Positions 401-54,167 of a stretch of DNA of 64,000 nucleotides are shown here, one piece after another. The position numbers and the translations under genes were made by a program. The stretch comes from Akkermansia sp. (GTDB lineage Bacteria; Verrucomicrobiota; Verrucomicrobiia; Limisphaerales; SIBH01): the NCBI GenBank assembly GCA_043757045.1, contig JAYVQC010000097.1:365-64364 (forward strand), in the 5' to 3' direction. The notes under the pieces are model-generated. The model worked only from the letters and a program-made list of their open reading frames with translations. It did not search any database and was not told the DNA's origin. Numbering within the stretch: position 1 is the first letter of the stretch; every line of letters begins with the position of its first letter.

Positions 401-3400
401 CTAGGGCCGCTGGGTCGGCACCGTCTTGTGCCGCTCGGGAAATTCATCGTCTGCGTGCAACGGGTTGCCCGCCGGATCAATCAGCCGGGGCGTGATGAAG
501 TAGATGAGTTCCTTCTCCGTGTAGTTCGTGGTGAGGACGCCGTTCTCGGCGCGGTCACGCTGCATGGTTCGCGCGCTGCCCGCGCCGATCATCAACGTCT
601 GCCCGTCCCAGACCATCGCCGAGGTCGCGACCTGGCGCAGACGGAATTTCGGCAATGGTACGGGCGAGGTCACGCCATTCACCTGCGCGGCTCCGCCGAT
701 GGCGGGCTGCACGGTCTGAGGATCTTCGTAGCCCAGAAATTCTTTCAGAGAAGGAAGGACTGTCATCAGAATCGTGTAGCCGTCGGGCTGCACGTAAGGC
801 ACCACGTCAAGCACGGGTCCCAGTTCAAACGGTTCGGCAATGGGCAGGATTTCCGGCTGCCGCTTGGTGGCATTGGTCGCGCCGATGTCCAGCCCCGTGA
901 CGACGTATTGGATATCCACCACTTTGATCTGCGCCTGCCGTCCGCTCAGGGTCGTGATCGTCGGCGCGTCCAGCAACTCCGTCCCGCCCCGATGCTCCAG
1001 CGCGCGCACCACGTCGCGAAACTGCCAGTCGGTGAGAATGCCGGTGATGGTCGGAACCCGTGCGTTTGAATCCGCCCGGCTCCGTGGCGGCGGATTGGTC
1101 AACACCGTGCCAAGAAACCAGTCGAAGCCCTGCGCGGCATTCGTCTTGGCGATCTCGAACACTTTCACGCGGATGTTCAACTGCGGCGGAGTCATGTTCA
1201 GCAACTGCACCGCCTTCTCGATGGTATCCAGTTCCGATGCGGTGGCGCGCACCATGATCATGCTCACGCGATCCTTGTAGAACACGGCCCGCCCCGGCGC
1301 GCTCAAATCCACGCCGGCCAGCTCGAATAATTTCTGCACGCGCTGCATGACGGAATTGGTGTCGTAGGGATTAAAGACCGGCTTCTTCTCACCGGTCCGT
1401 TGGTTCAATCCTGAGATAGATTTTAATCCTTCCTCCAACGTGTTCGGGTCCACCTTGAAAAACCGCGTCTGGAGATTGGTGGAGCTCGTCTCCTGAACTT
1501 GATTCGTCCACGAGTCCATCGGCTCCATCTTCAACTTCAACTCCTTCAACCTTGCTCGGACCGCCAGTTCCCGCGCGTTCACCAAGTCCAGATAGTAGAG
1601 CGCGCCCTGATTCTTCGGACTGAGCAGCAGCGCGGCTTGCAGATTCGTGCGCGCGGCTTGCAACTGGCCGGTCTCGTAGAAAACCTTTCCCGTCTGAACC
1701 AACCCAGCCGCTTCGATCTGCATTTCTTCAGTGATATTGCCCAGCCCGCCCGCCACCGCTCCGCCCGCCCGGACTTCGGCGCCTGACTTAATGCCGAACG
1801 GTTGCAGCGCCTTCTCAATCACGTCCAAGTCTTCCAGTGTCGCGCGGATCATCAGCAGCCCGAGCTTGTCATTGTAGAAGACCGCCTTGCCTGGTTCGGT
1901 CAATTCCACTCCCAAGGACTTCAACCAGTTTCGCGTTCCGGGAGTCACCACTTCAGCCGGTGTGACTTCGGTCAGAAAACGAATGCCGTTGGTGACCTTG
2001 AAGTCAGCAGGCCGTCCAACGCCAACATCATCAGGCGTCTTCGCAGAAGCGTTGGTCAGTTCGCGTGGTATGGATTGGAGCGCGCGCTGAAAGTCGTTTG
2101 AGTTCATGCGAAAGAATCGCGTGTGCAGCGGTGTCGGTTCATTACCCGCAGGAGAGATGAGGACGCCGTAGTCTTCGACCGAATACTTGATTCGCCTTTC
2201 CGCGATTTTCATCACGATGTTCAGCACTTCCTCGGCGCTCAGGTTGTAGAGCTTCGTGCCCAGACGAACCGTGGTGGGGTTCAAATCGATCGGCTCATTT
2301 GTTGGCGCGATGGGCAGGCCGGAGGCACCAAGTCCGGTGGGCTGCGAAGCGGGGATCGGACTGCTGAGGATGAAATTCACGCCTTGGTGTTCAGGATCGA
2401 TCCGGCGGGTCTCTGCGGACAAACCACGGATCACTTCACTAAGCGGCAGGTTGTCGAGCGGTCCCCACTCGCTCAGGCGAATGCTGCGGAGCTTGTCGTA
2501 AATCTGCTGGCGCTTCGCGCTCGTCTGCAAGCGTGTTCCCGCGCGGCTTGGCTCCTGGTTGCTGAAGAACCTTCCGAAGAGAGGAATGTCGCTGAGGTTG
2601 GAAGCAGTCAGCGAGTTTGTCGTGGTGGCAGTGGGCGCAACCCGTTTCACCTCGGCAGATTCAGCAGCCGCCGCGAACGCGCTGCCGAGAATGGAACTGC
2701 GCCAGGCACCGCCGCGCGGCTCATCAGACTTCAGCACCGCCGCCATGCCCAGCCACAGCAGCGCGGCGCCAACCATCGGCACGATAAGCCGCAGATACCA
2801 AGGCACCGGACGGCTGAGGCGTGCGTGCGGTCCGAGTTGCAGCAAGCGCTCCACGCGCTGGCCCAGCGCGCTGCGGAAACCGCCGCCATCCATGCCGAGC
2901 CAGGTGGTGAGCGCGGGGCGGCGCAGTTCCTTCGCGCAGGCCACGAGACATTCCGCGAGGCGATCCGGTCCGTCCGCGAGGAGCAGGCTGGCTTCGTCCG
3001 CGACGAGTTCGCTGGCGTGATCCAGTTCGCGCTTGGCCAGCCACACGAGGGGATGCCACCACAGCACGGCGCAGGCAAATTGACTGAAGCAGCGCCACGC
3101 CGAATCAAACCCCGCGACGTGCGCCAACTCATGCGCCAACGCCGCGTCTTGTTGCGCGGGCGTGAAGGTTTCGGAGAAACGTGTGGGCAGCACAATCACC
3201 GGACGCCACACGCCGAACGTGAACGGCGCGAGTGCCCGCGCGTTGGTGAGCAGCGCGACCTTGCGGCGAATGCCGAGCGTCTGCGCGATGCGTTGGGCGC
3301 GTTGTGTCAAAGCATTGGAGCTGCGGACAGCCATGTCCGCAGTCCCTTCTATGGTGTTGGCGTCCAGCGGACATGGCTGTCCGCTGCTCCGATGGGAGGC

Positions 3401-3865
3401 GAGCCTCAGCGCGATGGCCATCGCTTGCGCGATTAGCAGGCGAAACAAAATCAGTGCGGCGACCCCGGCCCAAATCAACACCGGCCAGACGGCGTGTTGT
3501 TGCCAGCGTGAAGGACGCGGCGCGGGCCTTGGCACTGTCATGGTCAGCGGCGGGGCTTCGGTCATCAGTTGGTCGCGAAACCATTCCGAGTCCGGCTCCA
3601 CATCCTGCAAGGTCACGACCACCTTCTTCTCGACGAGCGGCGAAGATTTTTTCTCCGGCAGCCGCAGCCATCCGCGCACGCCGTTCAACTCCCCCACAAC
3701 AACCAGCAGCATCGCGAGCAGGGACATTTGCCAGAGCGCGCGTCGCCACACCGCCGAACGCAGTCGCAGGCTCACCAGTTTCGCGACAGCGAAGATGACT
3801 ACGAGTTCCAACGCCAGCGTGCCGCCGAACTGGAACCATTCCCGCAGAGTCGACCACGCGTTCAT
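401..3865 (-). CDS. BlaR1-type M56 peptidase signal transducer fused to a C-terminal secretin (GspD/PilQ-like) domain
   Basis: 1154-aa ORF with N-terminal TM helices and the zinc motif ALAHELAHVAGFD (HExxH) of the M56/BlaR1 family, followed by a later TM (LIVPMVGAALLWLGMAAVL). Then come two secretin-N-like modules (AVFYNDKLGLLMIRATLEDLDVIEKAL; AVFYKDRVSMIMVRATASELDTIEKAV). The secretin core follows (ITTLSGRQAQIKVVD...LDVVPYVQPDGYTILMTV...ELIYFITPRLIDP). It overlaps the upstream blaI-like gene by 4 nt. Confidence 0.85.
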   Translation of the reverse strand: MNAWSTLREWFQFGGTLALELVVIFAVAKLVSLRLRSAVWRRALWQMSLLAMLLVVVGELNGVRGWLRLPEKKSSPLVEKKVVVTLQDVEPDSEWFRDQLMTEAPPLTMTVPRPAPRPSRWQQHAVWPVLIWAGVAALILFRLLIAQAMAIALRLASHRSSGQPCPLDANTIEGTADMAVRSSNALTQRAQRIAQTLGIRRKVALLTNARALAPFTFGVWRPVIVLPTRFSETFTPAQQDAALAHELAHVAGFDSAWRCFSQFACAVLWWHPLVWLAKRELDHASELVADEASLLLADGPDRLAECLVACAKELRRPALTTWLGMDGGGFRSALGQRVERLLQLGPHARLSRPVPWYLRLIVPMVGAALLWLGMAAVLKSDEPRGGAWRSSILGSAFAAAAESAEVKRVAPTATTTNSLTASNLSDIPLFGRFFSNQEPSRAGTRLQTSAKRQQIYDKLRSIRLSEWGPLDNLPLSEVIRGLSAETRRIDPEHQGVNFILSSPIPASQPTGLGASGLPIAPTNEPIDLNPTTVRLGTKLYNLSAEEVLNIVMKIAERRIKYSVEDYGVLISPAGNEPTPLHTRFFRMNSNDFQRALQSIPRELTNASAKTPDDVGVGRPADFKVTNGIRFLTEVTPAEVVTPGTRNWLKSLGVELTEPGKAVFYNDKLGLLMIRATLEDLDVIEKALQPFGIKSGAEVRAGGAVAGGLGNITEEMQIEAAGLVQTGKVFYETGQLQAARTNLQAALLLSPKNQGALYYLDLVNARELAVRARLKELKLKMEPMDSWTNQVQETSSTNLQTRFFKVDPNTLEEGLKSISGLNQRTGEKKPVFNPYDTNSVMQRVQKLFELAGVDLSAPGRAVFYKDRVSMIMVRATASELDTIEKAVQLLNMTPPQLNIRVKVFEIAKTNAAQGFDWFLGTVLTNPPPRSRADSNARVPTITGILTDWQFRDVVRALEHRGGTELLDAPTITTLSGRQAQIKVVDIQYVVTGLDIGATNATKRQPEILPIAEPFELGPVLDVVPYVQPDGYTILMTVLPSLKEFLGYEDPQTVQPAIGGAAQVNGVTSPVPLPKFRLRQVATSAMVWDGQTLMIGAGSARTMQRDRAENGVLTTNYTEKELIYFITPRLIDPAGNPLHADDEFPERHKTVPTQRP
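3321..3388. repeat. Double-hairpin element (GCGGAC-N6-GTCCGC x2), copy inside the BlaR1-like ORF
   Basis: gcggacagccatgtccgc (3323-3340) and its reverse complement gcggacatggctgtccgc (3368-3385). Same organisation as 52018-52085. Confidence 0.8.
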
Positions 3866-5235: not shown

Positions 5236-6387
5236 TTGATAGTCCGGCCCATCGTGAAAAGAGGACGCCGCCATTTCCACCGTCCACTCGTGCGCGCCGC
5301 GAGCGGCCTGATGCTTTTACTCGCCACGGCGCTGCCGGCGGCGGACTGGCCGCAGTTCCGCGCGAACCCTTCGCTCACCGGCGTCTCCACGGAAAAACTC
5401 CCTGATAAACCCGCGCTGCTCTGGAGCATGAAGACGGGCGGCGAGGTGAAGTCTTCGCCCGCCATTGTCGGCGGCACGGTCTTCATCGGCTCGGCGGACA
5501 GCAATCTTTGGGCGTTCGCGCTGGCGGACGGGAAGAAGTTGTGGACGTACGCGGCGGGCGAACCCATCGAGTCTTCGCCGCTGGTCGTGGATGGAAAAGT
5601 TTTCGTCGGCGACATGTTCGGTGTGTTGCACGCGGTGAACGCCACGAACGGCAAGTCGCTTTGGAAGTACAAGACGGACGACAAGATCGTGGGCGGGGCG
5701 AATTTTTTTCGCGAGGGTGGCGCGTTGAAAATCATCGTGGGCAGCCACGATTACAAACTGCATTGCGTGGACGCGGCCACGGGGAAGAGCAACTGGGTCT
5801 TTGAGTCCGGCAACTACATCAACGGCTCGCCGGCGATTTACGAGGGCAAGACGGTCTTCGGCGGCTGCGACGCGATTCTCCACATCATTGACCTGAAGAC
5901 CGGCGCGAAGGTGAAGGAAGTGGACGGCGGCGCGTACATCGCCGGCTCGGTGGCCATCGCGGATCGCAAGGCGTATTACGGACACTACGAGAATGAGTTT
6001 CTGTGCGTGGATTTGGAGAAGGGCACGAACTCGTGGACGTTCCGCGACCGCGCGTTTCCCTATTTTTCCTCGGCGGCCGTGACGGGCGACCGCGTGGTCT
6101 TCGGTGGACGCGACAAGCGGTTGCACTGCGTCAATCGCGCGGATGGCAAAGAGCTTTGGGCGTTGCCCACGCGCGGCAAGGTGGACAGCTCGCCGGCCAT
6201 CGCCAGCGACAAGATCGTGGTCGGCTCGGACGACGGGCGCGTGTATCTGGTGCGCCTGAGCGACGGCCAGGAATTGTGGAACTACGAAATCGGCCAGCCC
6301 GTGGAAAGCTCGCCCGCTGTGTCTGGAGGCCGGTTCGTCGTCGGGTCGAATGACGGCAGCGTCTATTGTTTTGGAGCGAAGAAATGA
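5236..6387 (+). CDS. PQQ-like beta-propeller repeat protein (BamB-like fold)
   Basis: Signal peptide then [11 protein letters not shown], followed by repeated SSPA-VGG-V/F-GS-DG-L/Y motifs ([78 protein letters not shown]). The track start is TTG 5236; GTG 5254 (MKRGRRHF...) is an alternative. Confidence 0.8.
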
Positions 6388-6869
6388 AGCCGAAGGTCTA
6401 TCTCGAAACAACCGTCGTGAGCTACCTCACGGCGCGGCCTTCGCGTGAGGCGATCATGAACGGCATGATCGAGCAGACGAAGAGGTGGTGGGCGGACGAA
6501 CGGCCAGGCTTCGATCTGTTTGTTTCCGATGTGGTTGTGACCGAGGCCGCTGCCGGGGATGCAAATGCTGCGGCCCGTCGTCTGACGGTGCTTAAAGATT
6601 TGGAGACCATCGAGGCTGACGCCGAGGCGAAAGCTCTTGCCGCCGTTCTGTTGGAAAATATGGCGTTGCCTCCGAAAGCAGTGGACGACGCGGCGCACAT
6701 CGCCATCGCCGCTGTCAACGAGATGGATTATCTGCTGACCTGGAATTGTCGGCACATTGCCAACGCGGCGATGCGGCCCAAGCTCGAACACCTGTGCCTG
6801 TCGAAGGGCTATCGTTGTCCGATTATTTGCACGCCACATGAATTGAGGAGACCTGAACATGAAAACTGA
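6384..6869 (+). CDS. PIN-domain (VapC-like) toxin family protein
   Basis: Start trimmed to ATG 6384 (ATGA overlap with the upstream stop). [20 protein letters not shown]...[26 protein letters not shown]...ICTPHEL is the widespread PIN-like family that precedes a small partner ORF. Confidence 0.7.
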
Positions 6870-7041
6870 CCCGATTCTGGATGAGATTCGCCGCTTCCGC
6901 GACGAGCACGCGAAGAAGTTCAACTACGACCTCGACGCGATCTTTGCCGATCATCAGCGCCACGCCGCTGAACTGAAGAAGCAGGGCTGGAAGTTCGTGA
7001 AGCTGCCGCGCCGTCGCCGTCCCACGGCCAAGGCCGCCTGA
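6859..7041 (+). CDS. Small partner protein of the PIN-like gene (putative antitoxin)
   Basis: 60 aa ([34 protein letters not shown]...). It overlaps the PIN gene end by 11 nt. Gene order is toxin first. Confidence 0.5.
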   Translation: MKTDPILDEIRRFRDEHAKKFNYDLDAIFADHQRHAAELKKQGWKFVKLPRRRRPTAKAA

Positions 7042-7045
7042 AACC

Positions 7046-8395
7046 ATGAGCACCATCACCATCGCCCCCGCGCCGACGCCGACCGCGCCTCCGATGCAGA
7101 AGGAGACGACCGCCGGCAGCTACTTCATCTCGAACTATCCGCCGTTCTCGTTCTGGAAGCCGGAGATAATCCCGCAGTTTCGCGAGGCGTTGGAGCGCGC
7201 GCCGCGGCCGGGCAGCGACCTCGGCCTCTACACGCACATTCCGTTCTGCCGGAAGCGTTGCCACTTCTGCTACTTCAAGGTCTATACGGACAAGGACGCG
7301 GCGGCGATTCGCGGCTACCTCGACGCGGTGTTGAAGGAGCTTACGACCTACGCCAGCAAGCCGGTCATCGGTGGACGCAAGTTGCGCTTCCTTTACTTCG
7401 GCGGCGGCACACCGAGCTATCTCTCGCCCGACCAGTTGAAGTTCCTCACCGATCGGATGAAGCAACTGCTCCCGTGGGACGCGGCGGAGGAAATCACCTT
7501 TGAGGCCGAGCCGGGCACGCTCACCGATCACAAGCTGAGGGCGATTCGCGAGATGGGCGTGACGCGCCTGAGCCTCGGCATCGAGCACTTCGACGATCAC
7601 ATTCTGGAAATCAACGGCCGTGCGCATCGCTCGAAGGAAGTCATGCGCGCCTACAATTACGCGCGCGAGATTGGTTTCCCGCAGGTCAACATTGATCTCA
7701 TCGCGGGCATGGTCGAGGAGACGGAGGACAAGTGGAAGGAAACCGTCGCCAAGGCGCTCGCGCTCCAGCCCGACTCGGTGACGATTTACCAGATGGAAGT
7801 GCCTTACAACACCGGCATCTATCAGCAGATGAAGGCGCAGGGCAAACTCGTCGCGCCCGTGGCCGATTGGGACACGAAGCGCCGCTGGGTTCAGTACGCT
7901 TACGGCGAGTTCGAGAAGATCGGCTACACCGTGACCAGCGCCACGACGGTCGTGAAAGACCCGGCCAAGGTGAAATTCGTCTATCGCGAAGGACTGTTCT
8001 CCAGCGCGGATATTCTTTCCGTCGGCGTCGCGAGCTTCGGGCGGCTCGGTGGTGTGCATTACCAGAACCAGCACGAGTTCGATCCGTATCTCGCCGCCGT
8101 GAACCAAGGTGAGTTGCCCGTCCATCGTGCCTACGTGCCGACGGACGACGAGCATCTCCTCCGCGAGTTCATCCTGCACTTCAAGCTCGGCCAGAACAGC
8201 GTGAGCCATTTCCAGAAAAAGTTCGGCGTGAACGTCCTGGAGCGTTTCGCCGCCCCGCTGCAACGCCTCAAGGACTGGGGCTTCCTGACCATCGAAGGCG
8301 ACACGCTGCGTCTGAACCGCGAAGCGCTGCTCGAAGTGGACCGGCTGCTGCACGAGTTTTTCCTGCCGCAACACCTTACGAACCGGACGACGTAG
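7046..8395 (+). CDS. Radical SAM protein, coproporphyrinogen III oxidase (HemN-like) family
   Basis: CxxxCxxC cluster motif HIPFCRKRCHFCYF, followed by YFGGGTPSYL and HemN-type C-terminal domain features. 449 aa. Confidence 0.85.
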   Translation: MSTITIAPAPTPTAPPMQKETTAGSYFISNYPPFSFWKPEIIPQFREALERAPRPGSDLGLYTHIPFCRKRCHFCYFKVYTDKDAAAIRGYLDAVLKELTTYASKPVIGGRKLRFLYFGGGTPSYLSPDQLKFLTDRMKQLLPWDAAEEITFEAEPGTLTDHKLRAIREMGVTRLSLGIEHFDDHILEINGRAHRSKEVMRAYNYAREIGFPQVNIDLIAGMVEETEDKWKETVAKALALQPDSVTIYQMEVPYNTGIYQQMKAQGKLVAPVADWDTKRRWVQYAYGEFEKIGYTVTSATTVVKDPAKVKFVYREGLFSSADILSVGVASFGRLGGVHYQNQHEFDPYLAAVNQGELPVHRAYVPTDDEHLLREFILHFKLGQNSVSHFQKKFGVNVLERFAAPLQRLKDWGFLTIEGDTLRLNREALLEVDRLLHEFFLPQHLTNRTT

Positions 8396-8396
8396 A

Positions 8397-8900
8397 ATGC
8401 CTGAATCACCGACAACCAGGAAAAGAAAGTTTCCAATGGTCACGGGCGCTGGTGCTGTAGCTTTCGTCTTGTTGCTGATTCCAGGCAACTACATCGCGGC
8501 ACCCGCATGGGATGTTTTGCTTCTTGAGGCCAAGGATCGCCCCGCACCCAATGTCCAAGTGGAGCAGATATGGAGCTACTATTTTGGTGCATTCTCGGAG
8601 GAGCACAATGAGTTGATCAAAAGTGATGAGAATGGGGTTGTGCATCTTCCAAAGCGCATTGTTCGAGTCCCGCGGCTGTTTGCATGGGCTGGTAGTGCCA
8701 TTGGGATATTGAATGTTCACGCGAGTCGTGGCCCGAGTTCTACCGTTTATGTTTCGGAAGATGGCTACGGCAGGAATTCGATACCAGTTGGGCAGGTAAC
8801 TCCCGCGAGCAATGGAGTTCGACGCTCGATCATTGTCATCGGGAAAAGAAGCGGCCTGCAAAAACAAACTTCCGTTGCCTCAGCAACCAATTCGCCATGA
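8397..8900 (+). CDS. Hypothetical membrane-anchored protein (visibly AT-richer ORF)
   Basis: 167-aa ORF with one N-terminal TM (VTGAGAVAFVLLLIPG) and no recognisable motif. Tightly packed between neighbours (2-nt gap upstream, 4-nt overlap downstream). Confidence 0.45.
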   Translation: MPESPTTRKRKFPMVTGAGAVAFVLLLIPGNYIAAPAWDVLLLEAKDRPAPNVQVEQIWSYYFGAFSEEHNELIKSDENGVVHLPKRIVRVPRLFAWAGSAIGILNVHASRGPSSTVYVSEDGYGRNSIPVGQVTPASNGVRRSIIVIGKRSGLQKQTSVASATNSP

Positions 8901-10111
8901 AACCCAAGCGTGCAACCAAGCTGCCTCCGTCCGCCTACGGCTCGCTGCTGGCGGACTTGAAGCGGCGTGTGCGCTCGGCGCAGGTGCGGGCCGCGCTCTC
9001 GGTCAATCGCGAGCTGGTGCTGCTCTACTGGCACATCGGGCGCGAGATTCTGCGCAGCCAGCAGGCCGAGGGCTGGGGCGCGAAAGTCATCGAGCGGCTG
9101 GCGAGAGATTTGCGGCGCGAGTTCCCGGACATGGGCGGGCTGTCGCCGCGCAACTTGAAATACATGCGCGCGTTTGCCGAAGCGCATTCCAGCGGGGCGT
9201 TCGTCCAGCAGCTTGCCGGAGAATTTGTGCAGCAGCTTGTGGCACAATTGCCGAGGCCAAAGACGGGCAAACCAATTGTGCAGCAGGCTGCTGCACAATT
9301 GCCTGCGGCAAAAGTCCAACAGCCTGTTGGACAACTGGCGCTCACAAAAGTGCAGCAGCCTGCTGCACAATTGGAGTTCGACCTCCCGCCCGAACCGTTT
9401 GCCTCGCTGCCGTGGTTTCACAACTGCCTGCTGCTCGACCGCGTGAAGAATCCTGCTGACCGCCTCTGGTATGCGCGCCAGACTTTGCTGCACGGCTGGT
9501 CGCGCGCGGTGCTCGCCGTCCAGATCGACACCAAACTTCACAAGCGCGCCGGCAAGGCCCTGAACAATTTCGCCGCCACGCTGCCGCCCGCGCAGTCCGA
9601 CCTCGCGCAGCAGTTGCTCAAGGATCCTTACACGTTCAACTTTCTCTCGCTCGGACCGGATGCGCAGGAGCGCGATTTAGAAAACGCGCTGATTGATCAC
9701 ATCCAGAAATTCCTGCTCGAACTCGGCGTGGGCTTCGCCTTCGTCGGGCGGCAGGTGCGGCTGGAAGTGGACGGCACGGAGTATCCGATCGATTTGTTGT
9801 TCTACCATCTGCGGCTCCGCTGCTACTTCGTCATTGATCTCAAGATGGAGGCGTTCGAGCCGCGCGACGCGGGGCAGATGAATTTTTATCTCGCCGCCGT
9901 GGACGATCAGATGCACCACGCGGGCGACCAGCCGGCCATCGGGCTGCTGCTGTGCCGCGACCACAAACGGCTCACGGTGGAATACGCGCTGCGGAATTGC
10001 ACCACGCCCATCGGGGTGGCCAAGTGGCGGACCAAGCTGGTGAATTCCTTGCCGAAAAAACTGCGCGGCCTGCTGCCGTCCGTGGAGGAACTCGAACGCA
10101 AGCTGCGCTGA
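8897..10111 (+). CDS. YhcG/DUF1016 family PDDEXK nuclease
   Basis: N-terminal RELVLLYWHIGREIL...WGAKVIERLARDL...GLSPRNLKYMRAFA. The C-terminal PD-(D/E)xK core is IDLLFYHLRLRCYFVIDLKMEAFEPRDAGQMNFYL. It carries the family-typical VQQ..AAQL low-complexity insert. Confidence 0.85.
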   Translation: MKPKRATKLPPSAYGSLLADLKRRVRSAQVRAALSVNRELVLLYWHIGREILRSQQAEGWGAKVIERLARDLRREFPDMGGLSPRNLKYMRAFAEAHSSGAFVQQLAGEFVQQLVAQLPRPKTGKPIVQQAAAQLPAAKVQQPVGQLALTKVQQPAAQLEFDLPPEPFASLPWFHNCLLLDRVKNPADRLWYARQTLLHGWSRAVLAVQIDTKLHKRAGKALNNFAATLPPAQSDLAQQLLKDPYTFNFLSLGPDAQERDLENALIDHIQKFLLELGVGFAFVGRQVRLEVDGTEYPIDLLFYHLRLRCYFVIDLKMEAFEPRDAGQMNFYLAAVDDQMHHAGDQPAIGLLLCRDHKRLTVEYALRNCTTPIGVAKWRTKLVNSLPKKLRGLLPSVEELERKLR

Positions 10112-13416: not shown

Positions 13417-13460
13417 CGCTTCGGAACTTGGTCTGGGGCGTGCCCGGAGAAGGCTGTGCA

Positions 13461-13553
13461 CACGAGGCTGAAAGCCTCGGAACCTGCCGGCTGGAAAGCC
13501 GGCGTTACGACGCAGCGCCGACATTCGTGTCGGCAGGTTCAGAGGCTTTCAGC
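13461..13553. repeat. CTGCCGGCTGGAAAGCCGGCGTTAC-type structured element
   Basis: gctgaaagcctcggaacctgccg (13467-13489) pairs with cggcaggttcagaggctttcagc (13531-13553). The core ctgccggctggaaagccggcgttac is shared with 28303-28475. Confidence 0.75.
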
Positions 13554-13600
13554 GGCGTGTTCCTCCCGGCAAGTCATGGCGCACCGGCGAGATGCGCTCC

Positions 13601-15070: not shown

Positions 15071-15183
15071 CAGTGGGACCGGCGCCCTCGCCGGTCGCCA
15101 GTCCAACAGGCGCCCCCGCCTGTCGAACAGCGGGCGAGGGCGCCCGCGAGACGAACGACAGCCGGGGGCGGCTGTCCCACTAC
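15071..15183. repeat. About 113-bp structured element, intergenic copy (between ECF sigma and anti-sigma genes)
   Basis: cagtgggaccggcgccctcgccggtcgccagtcc...ggctgtcccactac. Termini gtgggac/gtcccac are inverted. Internal ggcgccctcgcc pairs with ggcgagggcgcc. Confidence 0.75.
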
Positions 15184-21260: not shown

Positions 21261-21336
21261 ATTCCCCTGACCACCATTCCCCTGACTTGGCGGGGCGGGG
21301 AAAAGCGGAAGTCAGGGGAATGTTGGTCAGGGGAAT
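21261..21336. repeat. Palindromic element 3' of the histidine kinase gene
   Basis: attcccctgaccaccattcccctgactt is mirrored by aagtcaggggaatgttggtcaggggaat (two mismatches). Confidence 0.8.
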
Positions 21337-25666: not shown

Positions 25667-25773
25667 GAGCGCGGACTTTACAGTCCGCAGCCAGCCGCCC
25701 AGTGGTGAGGGGTATGAACTTGCTGGGACGCGCGGTCGTTCGTTGCTTGCTGCGGACTGGAAAGTCCGCGCGC
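25667..25773. repeat. Intergenic palindromic element with GCGGAC-N6-GTCCGC terminal hairpins
   Basis: gagcgcggactttacagtccgcag (left) and ctgcggactggaaagtccgcgcgc (right) are inverted copies of each other. Confidence 0.7.
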
Positions 25774-28219: not shown

Positions 28220-28302
28220 GCGCTGGCGTGAGGCTCAGGGAAAGCGCGGCGCGCAGGCAAGGAGCTTTCCCGAAACCCGAACGGCGGGGCACCGCCGCCG
28301 CC

Positions 28303-28475
28303 CTGTAACGCCGGCTTTCCAGCCGGCAACGTAATTAGGATTTCAGCCTCGTGGCCCTCCCTTTATTTTTACAGGGGCGGATTCTCGCGCGGCGGGCTTT
28401 GAACAGGAGGATCGAAAGCCTCCCGACCTGCCGGCTGGAAAGCCGGCGTTACGGGACGACGGCAACCTGCCGGGC
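28303..28475. repeat. Two inverted copies of the CTGCCGGCTGGAAAGCCGGCGTTAC element
   Basis: ctgtaacgccggctttccagccggcaacg (28303-28331) lies in inverted orientation to gacctgccggctggaaagccggcgttacggg (28425-28455). tttcagcctcgtg matches the flank of the 13461 copy. Confidence 0.75.
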
Positions 28476-41307: not shown

Positions 41308-44300
41308 TTACCGCCACTGCCCCGTCAGCGTGAACGCCGCCCAGAAGTAGGGATTGGATGGATTGTCCCGGTCGCTCTTGTCGTGCAGCAACGACAACTG
41401 CGCCGCGCGCCAGGCTTCCGCGCGCGGTTCGCCGGCCCGCCAGCGGCGCATGAACTCCGTCATCAAACGGCTCGTCGCCGCGTCGCTCACCTTCCAATGG
41501 CTCGCCAGCACCGTCTCCGCGCCGGCGATGCGGAAGGCGCGGCGCAACGACATCACGCCCTCGCCGATCTTCACCTCGCCCGTGCCCGAATCGCACGCGC
41601 TCAGGATCACCAGCTCCGTGCCTTGCAGGTTGAGCAGCGACGCTTCGAGTCCGGTCAGGAGGCCGTCTTCCACTTCGACATTCGGCATTCGTAATTCGGA
41701 CTTCGCCCGGTTCGCCCCCGCCAGCGCAATGCCGCAGCGCACCAGCGGATTCTCCCAGTCGTCCTGTGGTGGGGCGAGACTCCGTCGAGCCGTAACATCC
41801 CCCAGCCCATTCGTCCGCTTGAACTCCTGATCCGAAAGAAAAAATCCATGCGTGGCCAGGTGCAGCACGCGCGGCGATTGCACGGCTTTCAACTCTGCCT
41901 CCCGCGCCTCCGCGCCGAGACGCAGCACGCACTCCTCGCCCAGCAACTTCGCCACCCCGCGCGCCTCCTGTTCCGAACCCGGCAGCGGCGTGAACTTCAT
42001 CCCACGCGCGTCCAGTTCGCGCGAGCGAAAGGAGCGCGGGCTTCCAGCCCGCTGTTGGAAGCGTCCCGCTTCCAACCCGTTCGTTGCGGACGAGACGTCC
42101 GCCACAGCGCGCGGGACGCGCGCGCTCCCCAAATCCAAATCAAAATCCGGATTCCCCATGACCAGCGACTTGGAAACGGCCCCCGACTTCGGACCTTGGA
42201 CCTTGGACTTTGGACCCGCCGCAAGGCGAGCCACCTCCCGCCCGCTGCCGACGTAGCTGATGGTTTTCTCCTCGATGAGATATTTCACCCGCGCGGGCCT
42301 TGTTGCGCCGAAATCCGATGGAGGCGAAAGCATCTCGAACGGCAGCCGGCTCAACTGACCGTCCGGGCAGACGATGAGATGCGACACGTTCGTGAGGTGC
42401 GGCGCGAGCGGCGCATAGACCAACCGGCTCAACCGCTCCAGCGCCGCCGCCAAATCCGCCGCGCGAAACTGCCCCGCGCCCATGCGCCGGGCCACGAGTT
42501 CCACCGCGTCATCAATCGGCTGCGCCTCGCCCAAGTCCACGCGCCGCACGACCACGTTGGTCGAGTCCTTCGCCAGCGGGAAAGTGAGGTGGGCGGCGTA
42601 GCGCGTTTCGTTCCACTGGTTCGTCTTGGCAGCAAAATCAAATCGCCGATACTTCACAATATCCACAAGGGCCGCTTGCGATGGAAGGTGACGGCTCACG
42701 TCCACCAAAGTGAAACTTCGTTCCTGAATGGTTTGACCTACGAGTGCAACGCGCTCGGCCAGCTTTGCTTCGATCTGGCTCAATCCATCTTGCAGTTCGC
42801 GTCGCCGGTTGTCGATTTGGACCGGCTCAAGTTTGCTTTGCAAGACGTGCTCCAATTCAACTCTTGTCGCTTGGTGTTGGCGGAGAAATTCTTGAGTCGC
42901 AGTTTGTGGCGAAGACTCCAGCGCCGCTTGGACAACCTGCACCTCTTCAAACAAGCCTTTGTTGAGGGCCAATTCTTCGGCTCCGTGAGGAGCGGCTGAT
43001 GCGACATTCTTGTTTGCATCTTCAGCCCAAGCCGAATGGAACAAGCCGTCGCGAAAAGCCAGCGCATCCAAAGTTCGGAGAACGGCACCCATTGAAGCCA
43101 CGGAGAACTGGTTGTTCAGATAGTTCCGCAGCGAATGAGCGACGCGGGCAAATTCAAATTCGCTTTCCAGCAATTCCCCTTTTCTGCGACAGACTATAGC
43201 GACACATGTGAGCCAAAGACGGGTTTCGGGGTGTTCCAATCCGAGGGTCTTTTCACCGATCGCTGCCGCGCGCCGGTACAACCGTAGTGCTTCAACTTCG
43301 TCCCCAAGGCCGAGTTTTAATCCTGCGATTAAGCCCACCGATACCGCGACGTCGCGATGTTCTGTTCCAAAGATTTCTTCTCTCAATTCCAGACTTCGCC
43401 GGGCGAAAGGCAAAGCTATTTCGGGATTGCCACGCATCGAGTGTATCCCAGCCAGATTTGCAAGTGCGGTGGCTACTGCTGGATGGTCAGGGCCAAGAAT
43501 CTTTTCGTCTATAGCCAGGCTGCGGTTTTGAATTTTTAGAGCTTCATCATGCTTTCCTTCAGCGCCATAGAGTCCCGCGAGATTATTGAGAGTGATGGCA
43601 ACTTGGCGATGAATCGGACCGAATGCTTTTTCTGAAATGGCGAGACTGCGTTGATAAGCAGGTAACGCTTTCTCGTAGTCACCCTGGGATTCAAGCACAG
43701 ATGCTATCGCGTCCAAAGTCGGCGCGATTGCTGGGTGTTCAGGACCTGAATATCGTTCGCCGATGGCAAGACTGCGTTGGAGCAACGGCAAGGCTTGCGC
43801 ATACGCGCCTTGGTCTTTGTAGAGGAACGCAAGGTTGTTCAGCGAGTTGGCAACCTCTGGATGCTCGCCGCCAAACGCTCTTTCTCGAATCGACAGACTG
43901 CGGCGGATCAATTTTTCAGCCTCGCGAAAATCTCCTTGGTCGCGGTACACAGACGCGAGATTGACCAGGGCTGGCGCAACGCTTGGATGCTCTGGACCAG
44001 CAATCTGTTCGGTGATGGCAAGACTGCGGCGAAACGCCGCCATTGCGCGAGTGAACTCAGCTCGGTTTGCGTAAAGCAATCCCAAGTTGTTCAGGCTGAC
44101 AGCAACATCCGGGTGCGTTGGTCCAAATACCTTTTCCCGGATTTCGAGGGCACGCTGATGCAACCCCAAAGCCGCATCGTGCCGACCGATCTCTTCCTGG
44201 AGCACCGCTGCGTTGTTTACAGTTGTTGCGACGTTACCATCCAATGTTCCGAAAGCCTTGACCCGAATTTCCAAGCTCCGCAGAAGCGCATTGGAAGCCT

Positions 44301-49288: not shown

Positions 49289-49365
49289 GACCACGGAAGA
49301 CACGGAGAACACGGAATGGAAAACTTCCTTCGCTTCATTCCGTGTCTTCCGTGTCTTCCGTGGTT
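49289..49365. repeat. CCACGGA-type palindromic element directly 3' of queD
   Basis: gaccacggaagacacggagaacacggaatgga ... attccgtgtcttccgtgtcttccgtggtt. Related to the outer module of 45654-45909. Confidence 0.8.
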
Positions 49366-51171: not shown

Positions 51172-51354
51172 GATGCCTCACGCCAAGGCCGCAAAGGTCG
51201 CAAAGAAGTTGTTCGGGAAATAGCCACAGAGAACCCAGAGAACACAAAGAGTGCCTCGTTCCTTCTGGGTGTTCTTTGTGGCCATTGTTTTTTCAAGCCG
51301 TGCCGCCACTTTTTTCCCCTTTGCGTCCTTCGCGCCCTTTGCGTGAGGCATTTC
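51172..51354. repeat. Composite nested palindrome between the MFS and LuxC-like genes
   Basis: Outer pair: gatgcctcacgccaaggccgcaaaggtcgcaaag and ctttgcgtccttcgcgccctttgcgtgaggcatttc. Inner pair: gccacagagaacccagagaacacaaagag and ctgggtgttctttgtggc (the same module type as the middle module of 45654-45909). Confidence 0.8.
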
Positions 51355-51355
51355 T

Positions 51356-52654
51356 TCATCGGGCCGGTCCTTCCTTGAAAGCTTGTTCGCGATTTCCGAG
51401 CGCGTGCAGGCACGGCAACCCCAGCAGTGACAGCAACAGAAACACCGCGAGCCAGCCGTAGAGCGGATAGTACGCCGCCACCTCCGTCTTGCGCGCGCCG
51501 AAGCTTTCGACCCATTTGCCCACGATGAAGTGCGAGAGATTGCCCAGCAGCCCGCCGATGGTGATGAACAATCCGAACACGCGCCCGCGCACCGCGTTCG
51601 GCACCGCCTCCATCAACGCCGCCTCCACGATGGGATAGCTCGCGAGGAAAAAGAATCCATAGACCAGCAACGTCGGCACCACCCACGCCGCTGGCACATG
51701 CGGAAACGCCGCGACGAATCCCGCCGAGATGACGATGAGCGTCGCCGCCCAACGCAGTCGCGCGCGGTCGCTGAAGTGGCCGAAGAGCGGATTGCTGATC
51801 GCCGAGGCCACGAACAGCACGCTGATGGTCAGTCCGGTTCGCCCCACGTCGAAGCCGCGCGCCTTTTGCAGAAACAACGAGCCGACCGTGCTCATGCTGC
51901 TGCCCGTGAAATCGCGCAGGAGGAACATGAACGCCGCCGCGAGGAACATCAGCCACAGCGCGGGCGTGGGGAACATCGGTTCGGGCTTGGCAAGTCGCGC
52001 GCCGGAGTTGCGGACCGCCATGTCCGCAGTCGCTTCATTCTTGGCGAGGTTCTGCGGACATGGCTGTCCGCTGCTCTGATGCGCCGCATGCTCATCCGCC
52101 AGCCACGCGAACAGCGCGGCCATCACCAGTCCCGCCACGCCGAGTTCCGCGACCGGCCAACGCCAGTCGCCCGTCATCTGTGCGCGCCAGCCGGCGTAAA
52201 GTGGCCCCAGGCAAAATCCCACGCTCGCCCCGATGCCGAGCGTTCCGAGCGCGCGTCCCGTTGTCCCCGGATACAATTGCGCCACCAGGGCCGTGGCCGC
52301 CGGATGAAAAAAACTTCCGCCCAAGCCCGCGACGATCACACACGCCAGCGCCAGCGGATAAGTGGGCGCGAAGGCCAGTCCCATGAAGCCCAGCGAGTTG
52401 ATCAGCAGCCCGACGGTCAGAAGTTTTTTCCGGCTGCACCGATCCGCGAGCACGCCCATCGCGTAGCTCGGCAGGAAATACGCGACCAACAACACGGTCA
52501 CGAGCAACGTCGCGTCCTCCACCGAATCGCGCCGATAGAACGCCTGCATCGGCAGGTAGAGCGGGATGAGCGCGATCTGGTAGATGTGCGTGAACGCGTG
52601 CAAGACCGTGGTCAATGTCAGCGTGCGGGAGCGGTGGGAAGGTGATGCGGTCAT
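51356..52654 (-). CDS. MFS transporter
   Basis: 432 aa with 12 predicted TM segments and the MFS loop motif GVLADRCSRKKLL. The central loop carries a repeat-derived insert. Confidence 0.85.
   Translation of the reverse strand: MTASPSHRSRTLTLTTVLHAFTHIYQIALIPLYLPMQAFYRRDSVEDATLLVTVLLVAYFLPSYAMGVLADRCSRKKLLTVGLLINSLGFMGLAFAPTYPLALACVIVAGLGGSFFHPAATALVAQLYPGTTGRALGTLGIGASVGFCLGPLYAGWRAQMTGDWRWPVAELGVAGLVMAALFAWLADEHAAHQSSGQPCPQNLAKNEATADMAVRNSGARLAKPEPMFPTPALWLMFLAAAFMFLLRDFTGSSMSTVGSLFLQKARGFDVGRTGLTISVLFVASAISNPLFGHFSDRARLRWAATLIVISAGFVAAFPHVPAAWVVPTLLVYGFFFLASYPIVEAALMEAVPNAVRGRVFGLFITIGGLLGNLSHFIVGKWVESFGARKTEVAAYYPLYGWLAVFLLLSLLGLPCLHALGNREQAFKEGPAR
52018..52085. repeat. Double-hairpin element (GCGGAC-N6-GTCCGC x2), copy inside the MFS ORF
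   Basis: gcggaccgccatgtccgc (52020-52037) and gcggacatggctgtccgc (52065-52082), in the same orientation as the copy at 3321-3388. Confidence 0.8.
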
Positions 52655-52688
52655 GTTTCGTTGCCCACTGGTTTTGCCGGGCGCTCTG

Positions 52689-52792
52689 GAAAAGCGGCGC
52701 TAAAGCGACCGCACTCCAAACGCTGGCGCGCAGCATCAGACGCCTCTTCACGCGCGAAGCGTTTGGAGTGCGGTCGCTTTAGCGCCGCTTTC
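52689..52792. repeat. Long perfect hairpin element (33-bp arms)
   Basis: aaagcggcgctaaagcgaccgcactccaaacgc (52691-52723) has its exact reverse complement ending at 52791. A half-site, ggtcgctttagcgccgcttt, also occurs at 33367-33386. Confidence 0.85.
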
Positions 52793-52823
52793 GGACCCGA
52801 GTGGAAGATCGAGAATGTTTGCC

Positions 52824-54167
52824 TCATCGCAACGCCCCGGGGTCGAGGCTCATCAACGAACAACCGCGCGGTTCAGCTTGCGTCGCGCGGCCGAGCAGCT
52901 CGAAGCCATCGCCTCGTTTCACGGTGAGGTCTTCCGTTTGAATCGCCAGCACGCTGCGGACATTCGCCAGATCGAAAAGGCGAAGCAACCCGGTTTCGCC
53001 CTCGGCGACCTCTAGGCCTGTTTCCGGTGAGATGACTCGCGCGCGACACCAAGGCGGGAAGTGGAAGGCGCGGGGACAGGGAGACAAGGTGACTTGGGGA
53101 CTGACGCTGGCCTGACCTTGGGCCTTGGACCTTGGACCTTGGACTTCCCCCGCCACTCTGTCGTACGCCTGCGAACTGAGTTCGCTCATGCCGTATTCGG
53201 TCACGATGTTTTCCGGCGCGATGCCGAGGTGCTTGGTGATGAGCGCGTGGAGTTCGGCCTTCGGCACTTCGCGCGACTGGCCTTTGTAGCCGCCGGTTTC
53301 CAAGACGCGTGAGCCGCGTGCGAGTTTGTAGCGCATGTTGTTTACGGCGAAGTGATCGAGCAGGTGAACGAAGTTGAACGCGGTGCCGAGCAGCATCAGC
53401 GGACGATTCGCGCACATGGATTTGCGGATGGCGAAGAGCGCGGAGTTGAGGTCGAGCGTCCATGCGCCGCCGGCACTCGCAGTAGTGGGACTGGCGCCCT
53501 CGCCAGTCGCCAGTCCGGCCAGCGCCCCCGCGGGCCGAACACCAAGCGGTGGCGCTTGGTGGACTATGACAGGCGGGGGCGCCTGTCCCACTACCACTAG
53601 CCCGGCGAACAGGGAATCACGCGCGCCGAATTCGCGGCGCACGGTGTCGAACATGTGGACGAGCGAGGAGTTCGGCGCGGCGGCGGGCGGAGGTGTGAGT
53701 GCGAGCATCGGCAGCTTGTCGAGCGGGCCGAGGAGTTGCTCGTCCATGAGATCGTTCAAGTCGGCAAGCAGATGACGCTCAAACCACGGGAGCAAGGAAG
53801 CCTCGTAAATCGCCAGCGACTCCGCCGAATGAAAATGCCGGCTGCGTCGCTGCTCGGTGGTGCCGCTGGAGAAGAAGCACGCCGTGCGCTCGTCCGGCGC
53901 GAGGCTGGTGAGTTCGAGTTCCTTGAATGCGCTCGTCGGCACGGCGGGGATTTCCTCCCAGCGCGAAATGTCCGCCGCGCTTTTCACGCCGCGAAATTCA
54001 CAGAGCCGTCGGTAAGGCGTGTTGTGCGTGAACTGAAGTTGGAAGAGTGCGAGGGCCAGTTCGTTGAAGGCGGCATCTGGCTGCGGGCAACCAGACGCAC
54101 TGAACGCACGCAGGCGCGCGGCGTAATCAGCGAAAGTCAGTTCGTTTGTCATGCGGTTTTGTTTCAA
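52824..54167 (-). CDS. LuxE-like acyl-protein synthetase (adenylate-forming) family protein
   Basis: FFSSGTT(E)QRRSRHFH and ETGGYKGQSRE motifs resemble LuxE (SSGTTG / TGGxK). 447 aa including two repeat-derived inserts. Confidence 0.7.
   Translation of the reverse strand: MKQNRMTNELTFADYAARLRAFSASGCPQPDAAFNELALALFQLQFTHNTPYRRLCEFRGVKSAADISRWEEIPAVPTSAFKELELTSLAPDERTACFFSSGTTEQRRSRHFHSAESLAIYEASLLPWFERHLLADLNDLMDEQLLGPLDKLPMLALTPPPAAAPNSSLVHMFDTVRREFGARDSLFAGLVVVGQAPPPVIVHQAPPLGVRPAGALAGLATGEGASPTTASAGGAWTLDLNSALFAIRKSMCANRPLMLLGTAFNFVHLLDHFAVNNMRYKLARGSRVLETGGYKGQSREVPKAELHALITKHLGIAPENIVTEYGMSELSSQAYDRVAGEVQGPRSKAQGQASVSPQVTLSPCPRAFHFPPWCRARVISPETGLEVAEGETGLLRLFDLANVRSVLAIQTEDLTVKRGDGFELLGRATQAEPRGCSLMSLDPGALR
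53112..53146. repeat. GGACCTT heptamer repeat inside the LuxE-like gene
   Basis: ctgaccttgggccttggaccttggaccttggacttc. It encodes ..VQGPRSKAQGQ.. Confidence 0.8.
53481..53594. repeat. About 114-bp structured element, copy inside the LuxE-like ORF
   Basis: agtagtgggactggcgccctcgccagtcgccagtcc...gcctgtcccactac. Same family and orientation as 15071-15183. Confidence 0.75.

Follow-up and report, generated by a model that had tools for sequence, protein, structure and literature searches.

The 64,000-nucleotide stretch of Akkermansia sp. DNA analyzed here (contig JAYVQC010000097.1, positions 365 to 64,364; hereafter the window) carries related palindromic DNA segments in two unrelated membrane protein genes, and both segments are translated as part of the host proteins. 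The segment is very probably a REPIN, a member of a family common in Verrucomicrobiota whose units combine a GGAGC head with a GCGGAC/GTCCGC stem, which has been inserted twice in genes at tolerant sites and whose peptide is a by-product of the DNA sequence instead of a selected protein module. A REPIN is regarded as two repetitive extragenic palindrome (REP) units in inverted orientation, jointly forming one long hairpin. REPINs are immobile alone, and their movement is attributed to a RAYT (REP-associated tyrosine transposase) encoded by one gene copy and acting in trans, an IS200/IS605-type Y1 (HUH) transposase that would recognize the hairpin in single-stranded DNA. Twice in an ancestor of the window organism, a copy would have landed in a gene at a position where 24 stop-free codons were tolerable, namely, the central loop between transmembrane helices 6 and 7 (TM6-TM7) of a major facilitator superfamily (MFS) transporter and, in a BlaR1-like protein, the linker that joins a transmembrane helix to the M56 peptidase domain. 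A RAYT presumably moved both copies, and the host proteins with their inserts are presumably made and functional.

Regarding the element itself, a search of the window for exact GCGGAC-N(4-8)-GTCCGC hairpins revealed seven occurrences against 0.16 expected, a number reached by none of 100 shuffled sequences. Each REP unit is a short imperfect palindrome with a 6-bp GCGGAC/GTCCGC stem and a 6-nt loop, and six of the seven hairpins form three pairs. The first REPIN copy (3317..3390, minus strand) is 74 nt long from GGAG to CTCC, with arms at 3323-3340 and 3367-3384 separated by a 26-nt spacer, and encodes residues 160-181 of the M56/BlaR1-like protein. The second copy (52004..52077, minus strand) is likewise 74 nt long, with arms at 52010-52027 (one loop mismatch) and 52054-52071 and again a 26-nt spacer, and encodes residues 194-215 in the central loop of the MFS transporter. 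Aligned in direct orientation, the stretches 3317-3394 and 52004-52081 share 82% identity across 78 nt. An intergenic relative (25667..25773) has the same stems, at 25671-25688 and 25752-25769, with the different loops TTTACA/TGGAAA and a 63-nt spacer, and its 30-nt arms are 90% complementary. The 64-kb window thus holds two intragenic REPIN copies and one intergenic relative; a further hairpin at 42086-42102, which has a 5-nt loop and no GGAGC head, was set aside as unrelated. The arms of each intragenic copy are mutual reverse complements, loops included (AGCCAT/ATGGCT), and the minimum-energy fold of both copies is a single long hairpin with a 24-28 bp stem and an energy of -30 to -34 kcal/mol, compared with about -12 for shuffled sequence (z -7.4 to -8.8). 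No Rfam family matched at the gathering score anywhere in the window. An earlier note on this DNA, made from the letters alone, had proposed a GCGGAC-N6-GTCCGC architecture with a reverse-complement second hairpin in both genes and a relative between genes at 25667-25773, and both descriptions agree with the arms and stems found here. Its details required correction, as the spacer given as 27 nt measures 26 nt, the second copy lies at 52004-52081 instead of 52018-52085, and the "double hairpin" prefers to fold as one long hairpin, not two small ones.

The first host gene (401..3865, minus strand) encodes a protein of 1154 aa with a Peptidase_M56 (BlaR1-type) membrane domain, including HELAH at residue 245, and a C-terminal secretin domain; in relatives, a BlaI/Penicillinase_R-like gene lies upstream of it. 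The second (51356..52654, minus strand) encodes a 432-aa MFS transporter with an MFS_1 match, designated Fsr-like by some sources, in a conserved LuxE-(YkuD)-MFS-LuxC neighborhood. The peptides read in the two hosts are HRSSGQPCPLDANTIEGTADMAVRSS and HQSSGQPCPQNLAKNEATADMAVRNS, in the same frame, with the shared pattern SSGQPCP-9aa-TADMAVR, of which the middle nine residues differ between the hosts. On the coding strand, the 5′ end carries GAGCAGCGGAC and the 3′ arm GACTGCGGAC in both copies, which thus have the same orientation. AlphaFold2 models, which were built with homologue alignments, reach a mean pLDDT (predicted local distance difference test) of 89 for the MFS protein and 78 for the M56 domain and fall to about 50 exactly over the inserts. 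The MFS insert (pLDDT ~50) is placed between helices 165-185 and 231-265, and the M56 insert (~52) between helix 126-160 and helix 184-196, the first of the peptidase domain. The models therefore support the location of both inserts in low-confidence predicted loops, and what is known of how MFS transporters and BlaR1-type sensors are oriented in the membrane suggests that these loops face the cytoplasm. The reading of one DNA element in the same frame with identical peptide ends, its like orientation relative to two minus-strand hosts and its placement in loops had all been noticed earlier, and these observations stand.

Comparison with homologous proteins revealed that the peptide comes and goes with the DNA. 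Among 121 MFS orthologues, the median length of the loop bounded by WLADEH and EPMFPTPALW is 17 aa, and an insert of this type occurs only in the window and in P0003/L245 (84% identical; metagenome contig Ga0163150_10000342). As the site is the same and the spacer nearly identical, the MFS insert was inherited from a common ancestor. The M56 insert is carried by the window protein, L129 (contig Ga0163150_10000045) and P0121/L250, and exactly 24 residues are missing in P0123/L242 and all more distant M56 homologues. Since homologues without the repeat are also without the peptide, both copies are insertions of 24 codons, and the claim that a repeat is translated in two unrelated genes holds. 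P0121 and P0123 are ~80% identical to each other and 73% and 66% identical, respectively, to the window protein, so that the insert-free P0123 is nested among insert-bearing M56 proteins as the sister of one of them. When positions 1029-1070 of L242 were compared with L250 and with window positions 3290-3420, GGAGCAGCG was found to be kept at the site, which reads CATCGGAGCAGCG, a remnant comprising the REP head plus one base of the stem, the first; the 72 nt absent from L242 are bounded by GCG on both sides. Because an insert-free protein is nested among carriers and a REP head remains in it, the M56 copy would most simply have been gained once and later removed from this protein by a clean secondary deletion that spanned the palindrome. 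In the lineage of the window and L129, another indel, of 24 nt, adjoins the element on its 3′ side. Both insertions have been inherited by a related genome.

The shared frame and orientation had been taken to suggest selection for one tolerated reading frame or a directional insertion mechanism, and this part of the earlier note found no support, as the frames are mostly open, the element is symmetric and all three frames are represented among nine further independent intragenic copies. No frame of the arms is interrupted by a stop codon, and five of the six frames are open in the M56 copy and four of the six in the MFS copy, which rules out stop codons as the factor forcing a shared frame. 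As the element is a near-perfect inverted repeat, identical end peptides are no proof of orientation; indeed, the plus strand of the first copy also reads GQPCP...ADMAVR. Together with the 44-nt arm-to-arm offset, this symmetry means that six frames give only three peptide classes, and the chance that two independent copies share a class is p = 1/3 (p = 1/6 for class and orientation). Counting the two window copies, 11 independent in-frame intragenic events that share this stem were collected from 1.5 Mb of related loci, which represent metagenomes and other genomes, not the window's own genome. The 5′ arm reads G-x-x-C-P in four events, A-D-x-x-V-R in five and R-T-x-x-S-A in two, and the 3′ arm reads mostly A-D-x-x-V-R. 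If there is any frame preference, it would favor A-D-x-x-V-R, not the frame of the window; that frame fits host codon usage because it places G or C at every third position. Both hosts lie on the same strand, so that gene-relative and chromosome-relative orientation are inseparable, and the GC skew across the window is weak, with no clear sign, and of no help on replication direction.

The repeat family is strongly extragenic, with a small in-frame minority. A scan of species-representative genomes for doubled hairpins with any loop and unspecified flanks yielded at least 119 loci (L001-L119), and those listed among the matches span Verrucomicrobiota, Acidobacteriota, Planctomycetota, Hymenobacter, several Alphaproteobacteria and others. 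Outside the stems, these listed matches nearly always carry a short head (GGAGC, GTAGGG, GTAGC or GTGTGG), mirrored on both sides. As the scan itself required the GCGGAC/GTCCGC stem, the head pattern alone is an unbiased observation. Again among the matches listed, the head varies with the taxon: Verrucomicrobiota and some Alphaproteobacteria have GGAGC, Planctomycetota, Chloroflexota and others GTAGGG, Hymenobacter GTAGC and Acidobacteriota GTGTGG. An additional scan of metagenomes for the exact 18-mer GCGGACAGCCATGTCCGC gave at least 120 loci; in the matches listed, 96 of 130 arms have GGAGC immediately 5′ of the stem, with no conservation beyond it. Copies were called intragenic by a codon-usage model trained on the long open reading frames (ORFs) of the window and the loci, with coding flanks required on both sides; the model scored true frames at +0.25 to +0.46 per codon and the other five frames at 0 or below. 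Among the matches listed, 6 of 115 exact-core copies lie inside coding sequence, as against 40.6% of the random 74-nt windows drawn from these loci and scored by that rule (p = 4e-18), corresponding to an about eight-fold depletion of the family from coding sequence. Of the cross-phylum doublets listed, 4 of 121 scoreable ones are intragenic, and six more lie too near the locus end for scoring. Several one-mismatch single hairpins in a first intragenic list proved to be chance matches, and the rule was narrowed to exact cores. The other intragenic hosts include the phenylalanyl-tRNA synthetase beta subunit (PheRS beta), RtcB, a GH92 glycosidase, an S-adenosylmethionine (SAM) methyltransferase, a dihydropyrimidine-dehydrogenase-like protein and a LuxE-like protein.

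Candidate mobilizing enzymes are present in relatives. At L155, a Y1_Tnp ORF (773..1291; 33 bits, the cut-off being 23) is located between a GGAGC-GCGGACAGCCATGTCCGC doublet at 744-810 and a unit at 1510-1527, and the flanking units on both sides have the form GGAGC-GCGGACAGCC(A/G)TGTCCGC. The 3′ end of this ORF runs through the repeat and reads ...ERGQPCP.... Y1 genes at L022, L031 and L098 are flanked by sister REPs with the GCGGAC/GTCCGC stem. The transposase association is clear in these relatives, and the arrangement is the one described for RAYT genes.

Several observations weigh against the interpretation of the segments as passively tolerated REPINs. The head is GGAG, which is neither the canonical GTAG nor one of the degenerate variants listed in PMC3733652; sister families with the GCGGAC/GTCCGC stem carry GTAGGG or GTAGC at the head position. 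The head-to-head length of 74 nt is not a multiple of three, and the net insert is 72 nt, so that the original event was not a clean insertion of the head-to-head unit alone. An untouched empty site was not found, as the nearest insert-free M56 homologue, L242, still has its REP remnant and the loop of the nearest insert-free MFS homologue, L243, is too diverged for base-by-base alignment. No RAYT/Y1 gene was detected in the 64-kb window by tblastn with an approximate E. coli RayT probe and two RAYT-like sequences from the loci. Furthermore, between the window and L245, the MFS element is 95.8% identical and the rest of the gene 82.0%; at third codon positions, the respective values are 91.7% and 68.2%. 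Equal conservation is seen in only 3.9% of same-size windows. This higher conservation of the MFS element hints at constraint beyond neutrality.

The hairpin could accordingly be kept for a role at the RNA or DNA level, such as slowed translation at membrane insertion, transcript stability or service as a live transposase substrate, the insertion having been co-opted. This explanation, which we regard as quite unlikely, would account for the conservation of the MFS element and also for L250, in which both arm loops have changed together (AGCCTT/AAGGCT instead of AGCCAT/ATGGCT) with the long hairpin preserved. It also draws on the membrane location of both hosts, in each of which the insert comes after a transmembrane helix. 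However, the conservation signal stems from one 72-nt segment in one pairwise comparison, and the M56 copy is not clearly above its flanks; the paired loop change in L250 may represent replacement by another family variant, AGCCTT arms being common. The M56 insert appears to have been cleanly lost in one lineage, and the other intragenic hosts, PheRS beta, RtcB, the GH92 enzyme and the methyltransferase, are soluble enzymes. A selected module with a common function in two membrane proteins, for example a Cys-Pro motif, to which the palindrome would be incidental, is very improbable and largely refuted. More than 100 copies of this DNA lie outside genes, other genes use the remaining two frames, the peptide is predicted to be disordered, unrelated repeats occupy the same MFS loop of orthologues and the middle nine residues show no conservation from one host to the other; these facts outweigh the identical ends SSGQPCP and TADMAVR in two unrelated proteins, both in loops beside a transmembrane helix, and the retention of the insert in relatives of 73-84% identity. 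That gene conversion or ectopic recombination between the two genes produced one copy from the other, with no transposition, is extremely improbable. The two copies do share a spacer length of 26 nt, their orientation and frame and some bases at the spacer edges, but similarity ends at the GGAG heads, the flanks are unrelated, the spacers differ at most positions and free-standing copies with the same heads are numerous, including close variants such as L240.

In the published definition of REPs and REPINs, a small GC-rich palindrome adjoins a conserved head, and two such units, facing head-out, together form a long hairpin (PMC2817692, PMC3116915 and PMC3733652). The present element shares with the REPINs and GTAG-type REPs of Nunvar 2010 (PMC2817692), Bertels and Rainey 2011 (PMC3116915) and Di Nocera 2013 (PMC3733652) the 4-5-base head at the outer end, the inverted pair and the long hairpin, as well as a mostly extragenic distribution, Y1 genes flanked by the same units and an intragenic minority of dimers coding for 20-30 residues. 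It differs from published REPs in its GGAG head, which is treated here as a variant, and from REPIN-RAYT systems in that a cognate RAYT is seen in relatives only. Di Nocera 2013 (PMC3733652) describes REPs inside genes in several species; more than half of these intragenic inserts are dimers coding for 20-30 residues, probably in flexible linkers or loops, and the intragenic dimers are most numerous in the verrucomicrobium Opitutus terrae. The GCGGAC/GTCCGC stem family was not found in the searchable text or available supplementary files of that paper, which gives its consensus sequences in figures. The in-frame intragenic REP dimer is therefore an already documented phenomenon, and the GGAG-head/GCGGAC-stem family is the addition. 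The Rickettsia palindromic elements (RPEs; PMC10969869) are similar in that in-frame palindromes occur in many unrelated genes at fold-compatible sites and encode a peptide without known function. However, RPE-1 is about 150 bp long and AT-rich, and the short RPE types are CGTC-tagged (PMC3733652), whereas the element here is 74 nt, GC-rich and GGAG-headed and resides in a verrucomicrobial host. In addition, RPEs have no known dedicated transposase, and nearly half of their copies are intragenic, compared with about 5% here, so that only the outcome, in-frame insertion, is held in common with RPEs. Bacterial MITEs (miniature transposable elements with inverted repeats; Correia, ERIC, Nezha and others) are also small, non-coding and bounded by terminal inverted repeats, with RNA folding and occasional in-frame fusions. 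MITEs derive from DDE-type insertion sequences and produce target-site duplications, whereas the enzyme associated here is of the HUH/Y1 type; the flanks CCCATC / AATGCT (M56) and GCATCA / GGCGCG (MFS) contain no direct repeat, and assignment to MITEs was rejected.

For annotation, the shared peptide should be treated as repeat-derived loop sequence, neither a domain nor a sign of protein kinship. For repeat biology, the two copies add a GGAG-headed, GCGGAC-stemmed REPIN family from uncultured Verrucomicrobiota in which intragenic copies have been gained, inherited and, in one case, apparently lost again cleanly, and such copies provide a natural map of insertion-tolerant sites in membrane proteins.

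The central loop of the MFS transporter is evidently permissive and forms an insertion hotspot in this orthologue group. Among the 121 orthologues compared (orthologue group P0001-P0120), 30 have a TM6-TM7 loop of 28-69 aa, as opposed to the median of 17, and at least six peptide classes can be distinguished. Three insert classes were checked as DNA, and all are inverted repeats. The insert of L247 (3050-3205) is a GCGGAC-stem doublet of a sister subfamily, the one to which the window intergenic copy at 25667-25773 belongs; that of L248 (2707-2910) is an unrelated element with inverted repeats of >40 bp, and that of L249 (3050-3214) is a doublet whose heads are GTAGGG and whose stem differs. 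With the window REPIN counted in, the DNA-checked MFS inserts go back to four repeat families, three of which are distinct.

The neighborhood of the MFS gene shows further variation. A YkuD (L,D-transpeptidase) gene is present between LuxE and MFS in L243, L245 and L248 and is missing from the window, L247 and L249; the corresponding gap of the window (52655-52823, 170 nt) contains a perfect 34-nt inverted repeat (52691-52724 / 52758-52791). A third in-frame repeat insert is located at window positions 53484-53565 in the LuxE-like ORF (52824..54167, minus strand), with another copy at 15072-15183. This insert comprises ~39 aa (VVVGQAPPPV...TGEGASPTT) and comes from a different palindromic repeat family. 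It occurs at the same site in L247, is absent from L245 (the closest relative, 88% identical), L243, L248 and L249, and its peptide class is also found in the MFS loop of P0038.

A RAYT-like domain was also encountered within alanyl-tRNA synthetase (AlaRS), nested in frame in alaS across a broad clade. At the REPIN-bearing locus L198 (contig Ga0163150_10000037), a gene at 5790-9518 on the minus strand encodes a 1242-aa AlaRS with an in-frame RAYT-like Y1_Tnp domain at residues 564-663, coded at about 7338-7928 and flanked by copies of a 149-nt inverted-repeat element. Bacterial AlaRS usually has about 880 residues. The best 120 AlaRS relatives (clusters P0189-P0308, 56-100% identity) are 1061-1408 aa long, and most of these 120 clusters contain Y1_Tnp (PF01797) at the same site. 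The PDHxH motif is present in 97 of the 120 clusters, and the tyrosine-bearing FHYICRNPW region is conserved in an aligned sample. Many of the clusters are named by the Joint Genome Institute (JGI) as [quoted passage not shown], and a literature search found no paper discussing a Y1/RAYT domain nested in AlaRS. Based on the diversity of the MFS-loop inserts, the higher conservation of the MFS REPIN than of its host and the Y1 domain with an intact HUH motif and tyrosine region in AlaRS, REP/RAYT elements might be a regular and partly constrained source of protein-loop sequence in this verrucomicrobial lineage, with the transposase inside an essential gene, although we consider this proposal unlikely. 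If the alaS-nested enzyme moves these REPINs, the arrangement would constitute a new persistence strategy, in which the transposase could not be lost without breaking an essential gene. The repeatedly hit MFS loop and the RAYT-like domain of alaS bear on the long-term vertical persistence of REPIN-RAYT systems and could matter more than the two window insertions themselves.

The window is unusually rich in paired-hairpin repeat elements. At 9222-9374, within a 404-aa ORF (8897..10111, plus strand), four tandem palindromes of ~29 nt (CAATTGTGCAGCAGGCTGCTGCACAATTG) are read as repeated VQQ..AQL motifs. Other paired-hairpin repeat families, for example TGCCGGCTGGAAAGCCGGCGTTACG, are found at 13460-13560, 28293-28463, 21261-21336, 49290-49364 and 51173-51351, mostly in intergenic gaps according to a crude gene map.

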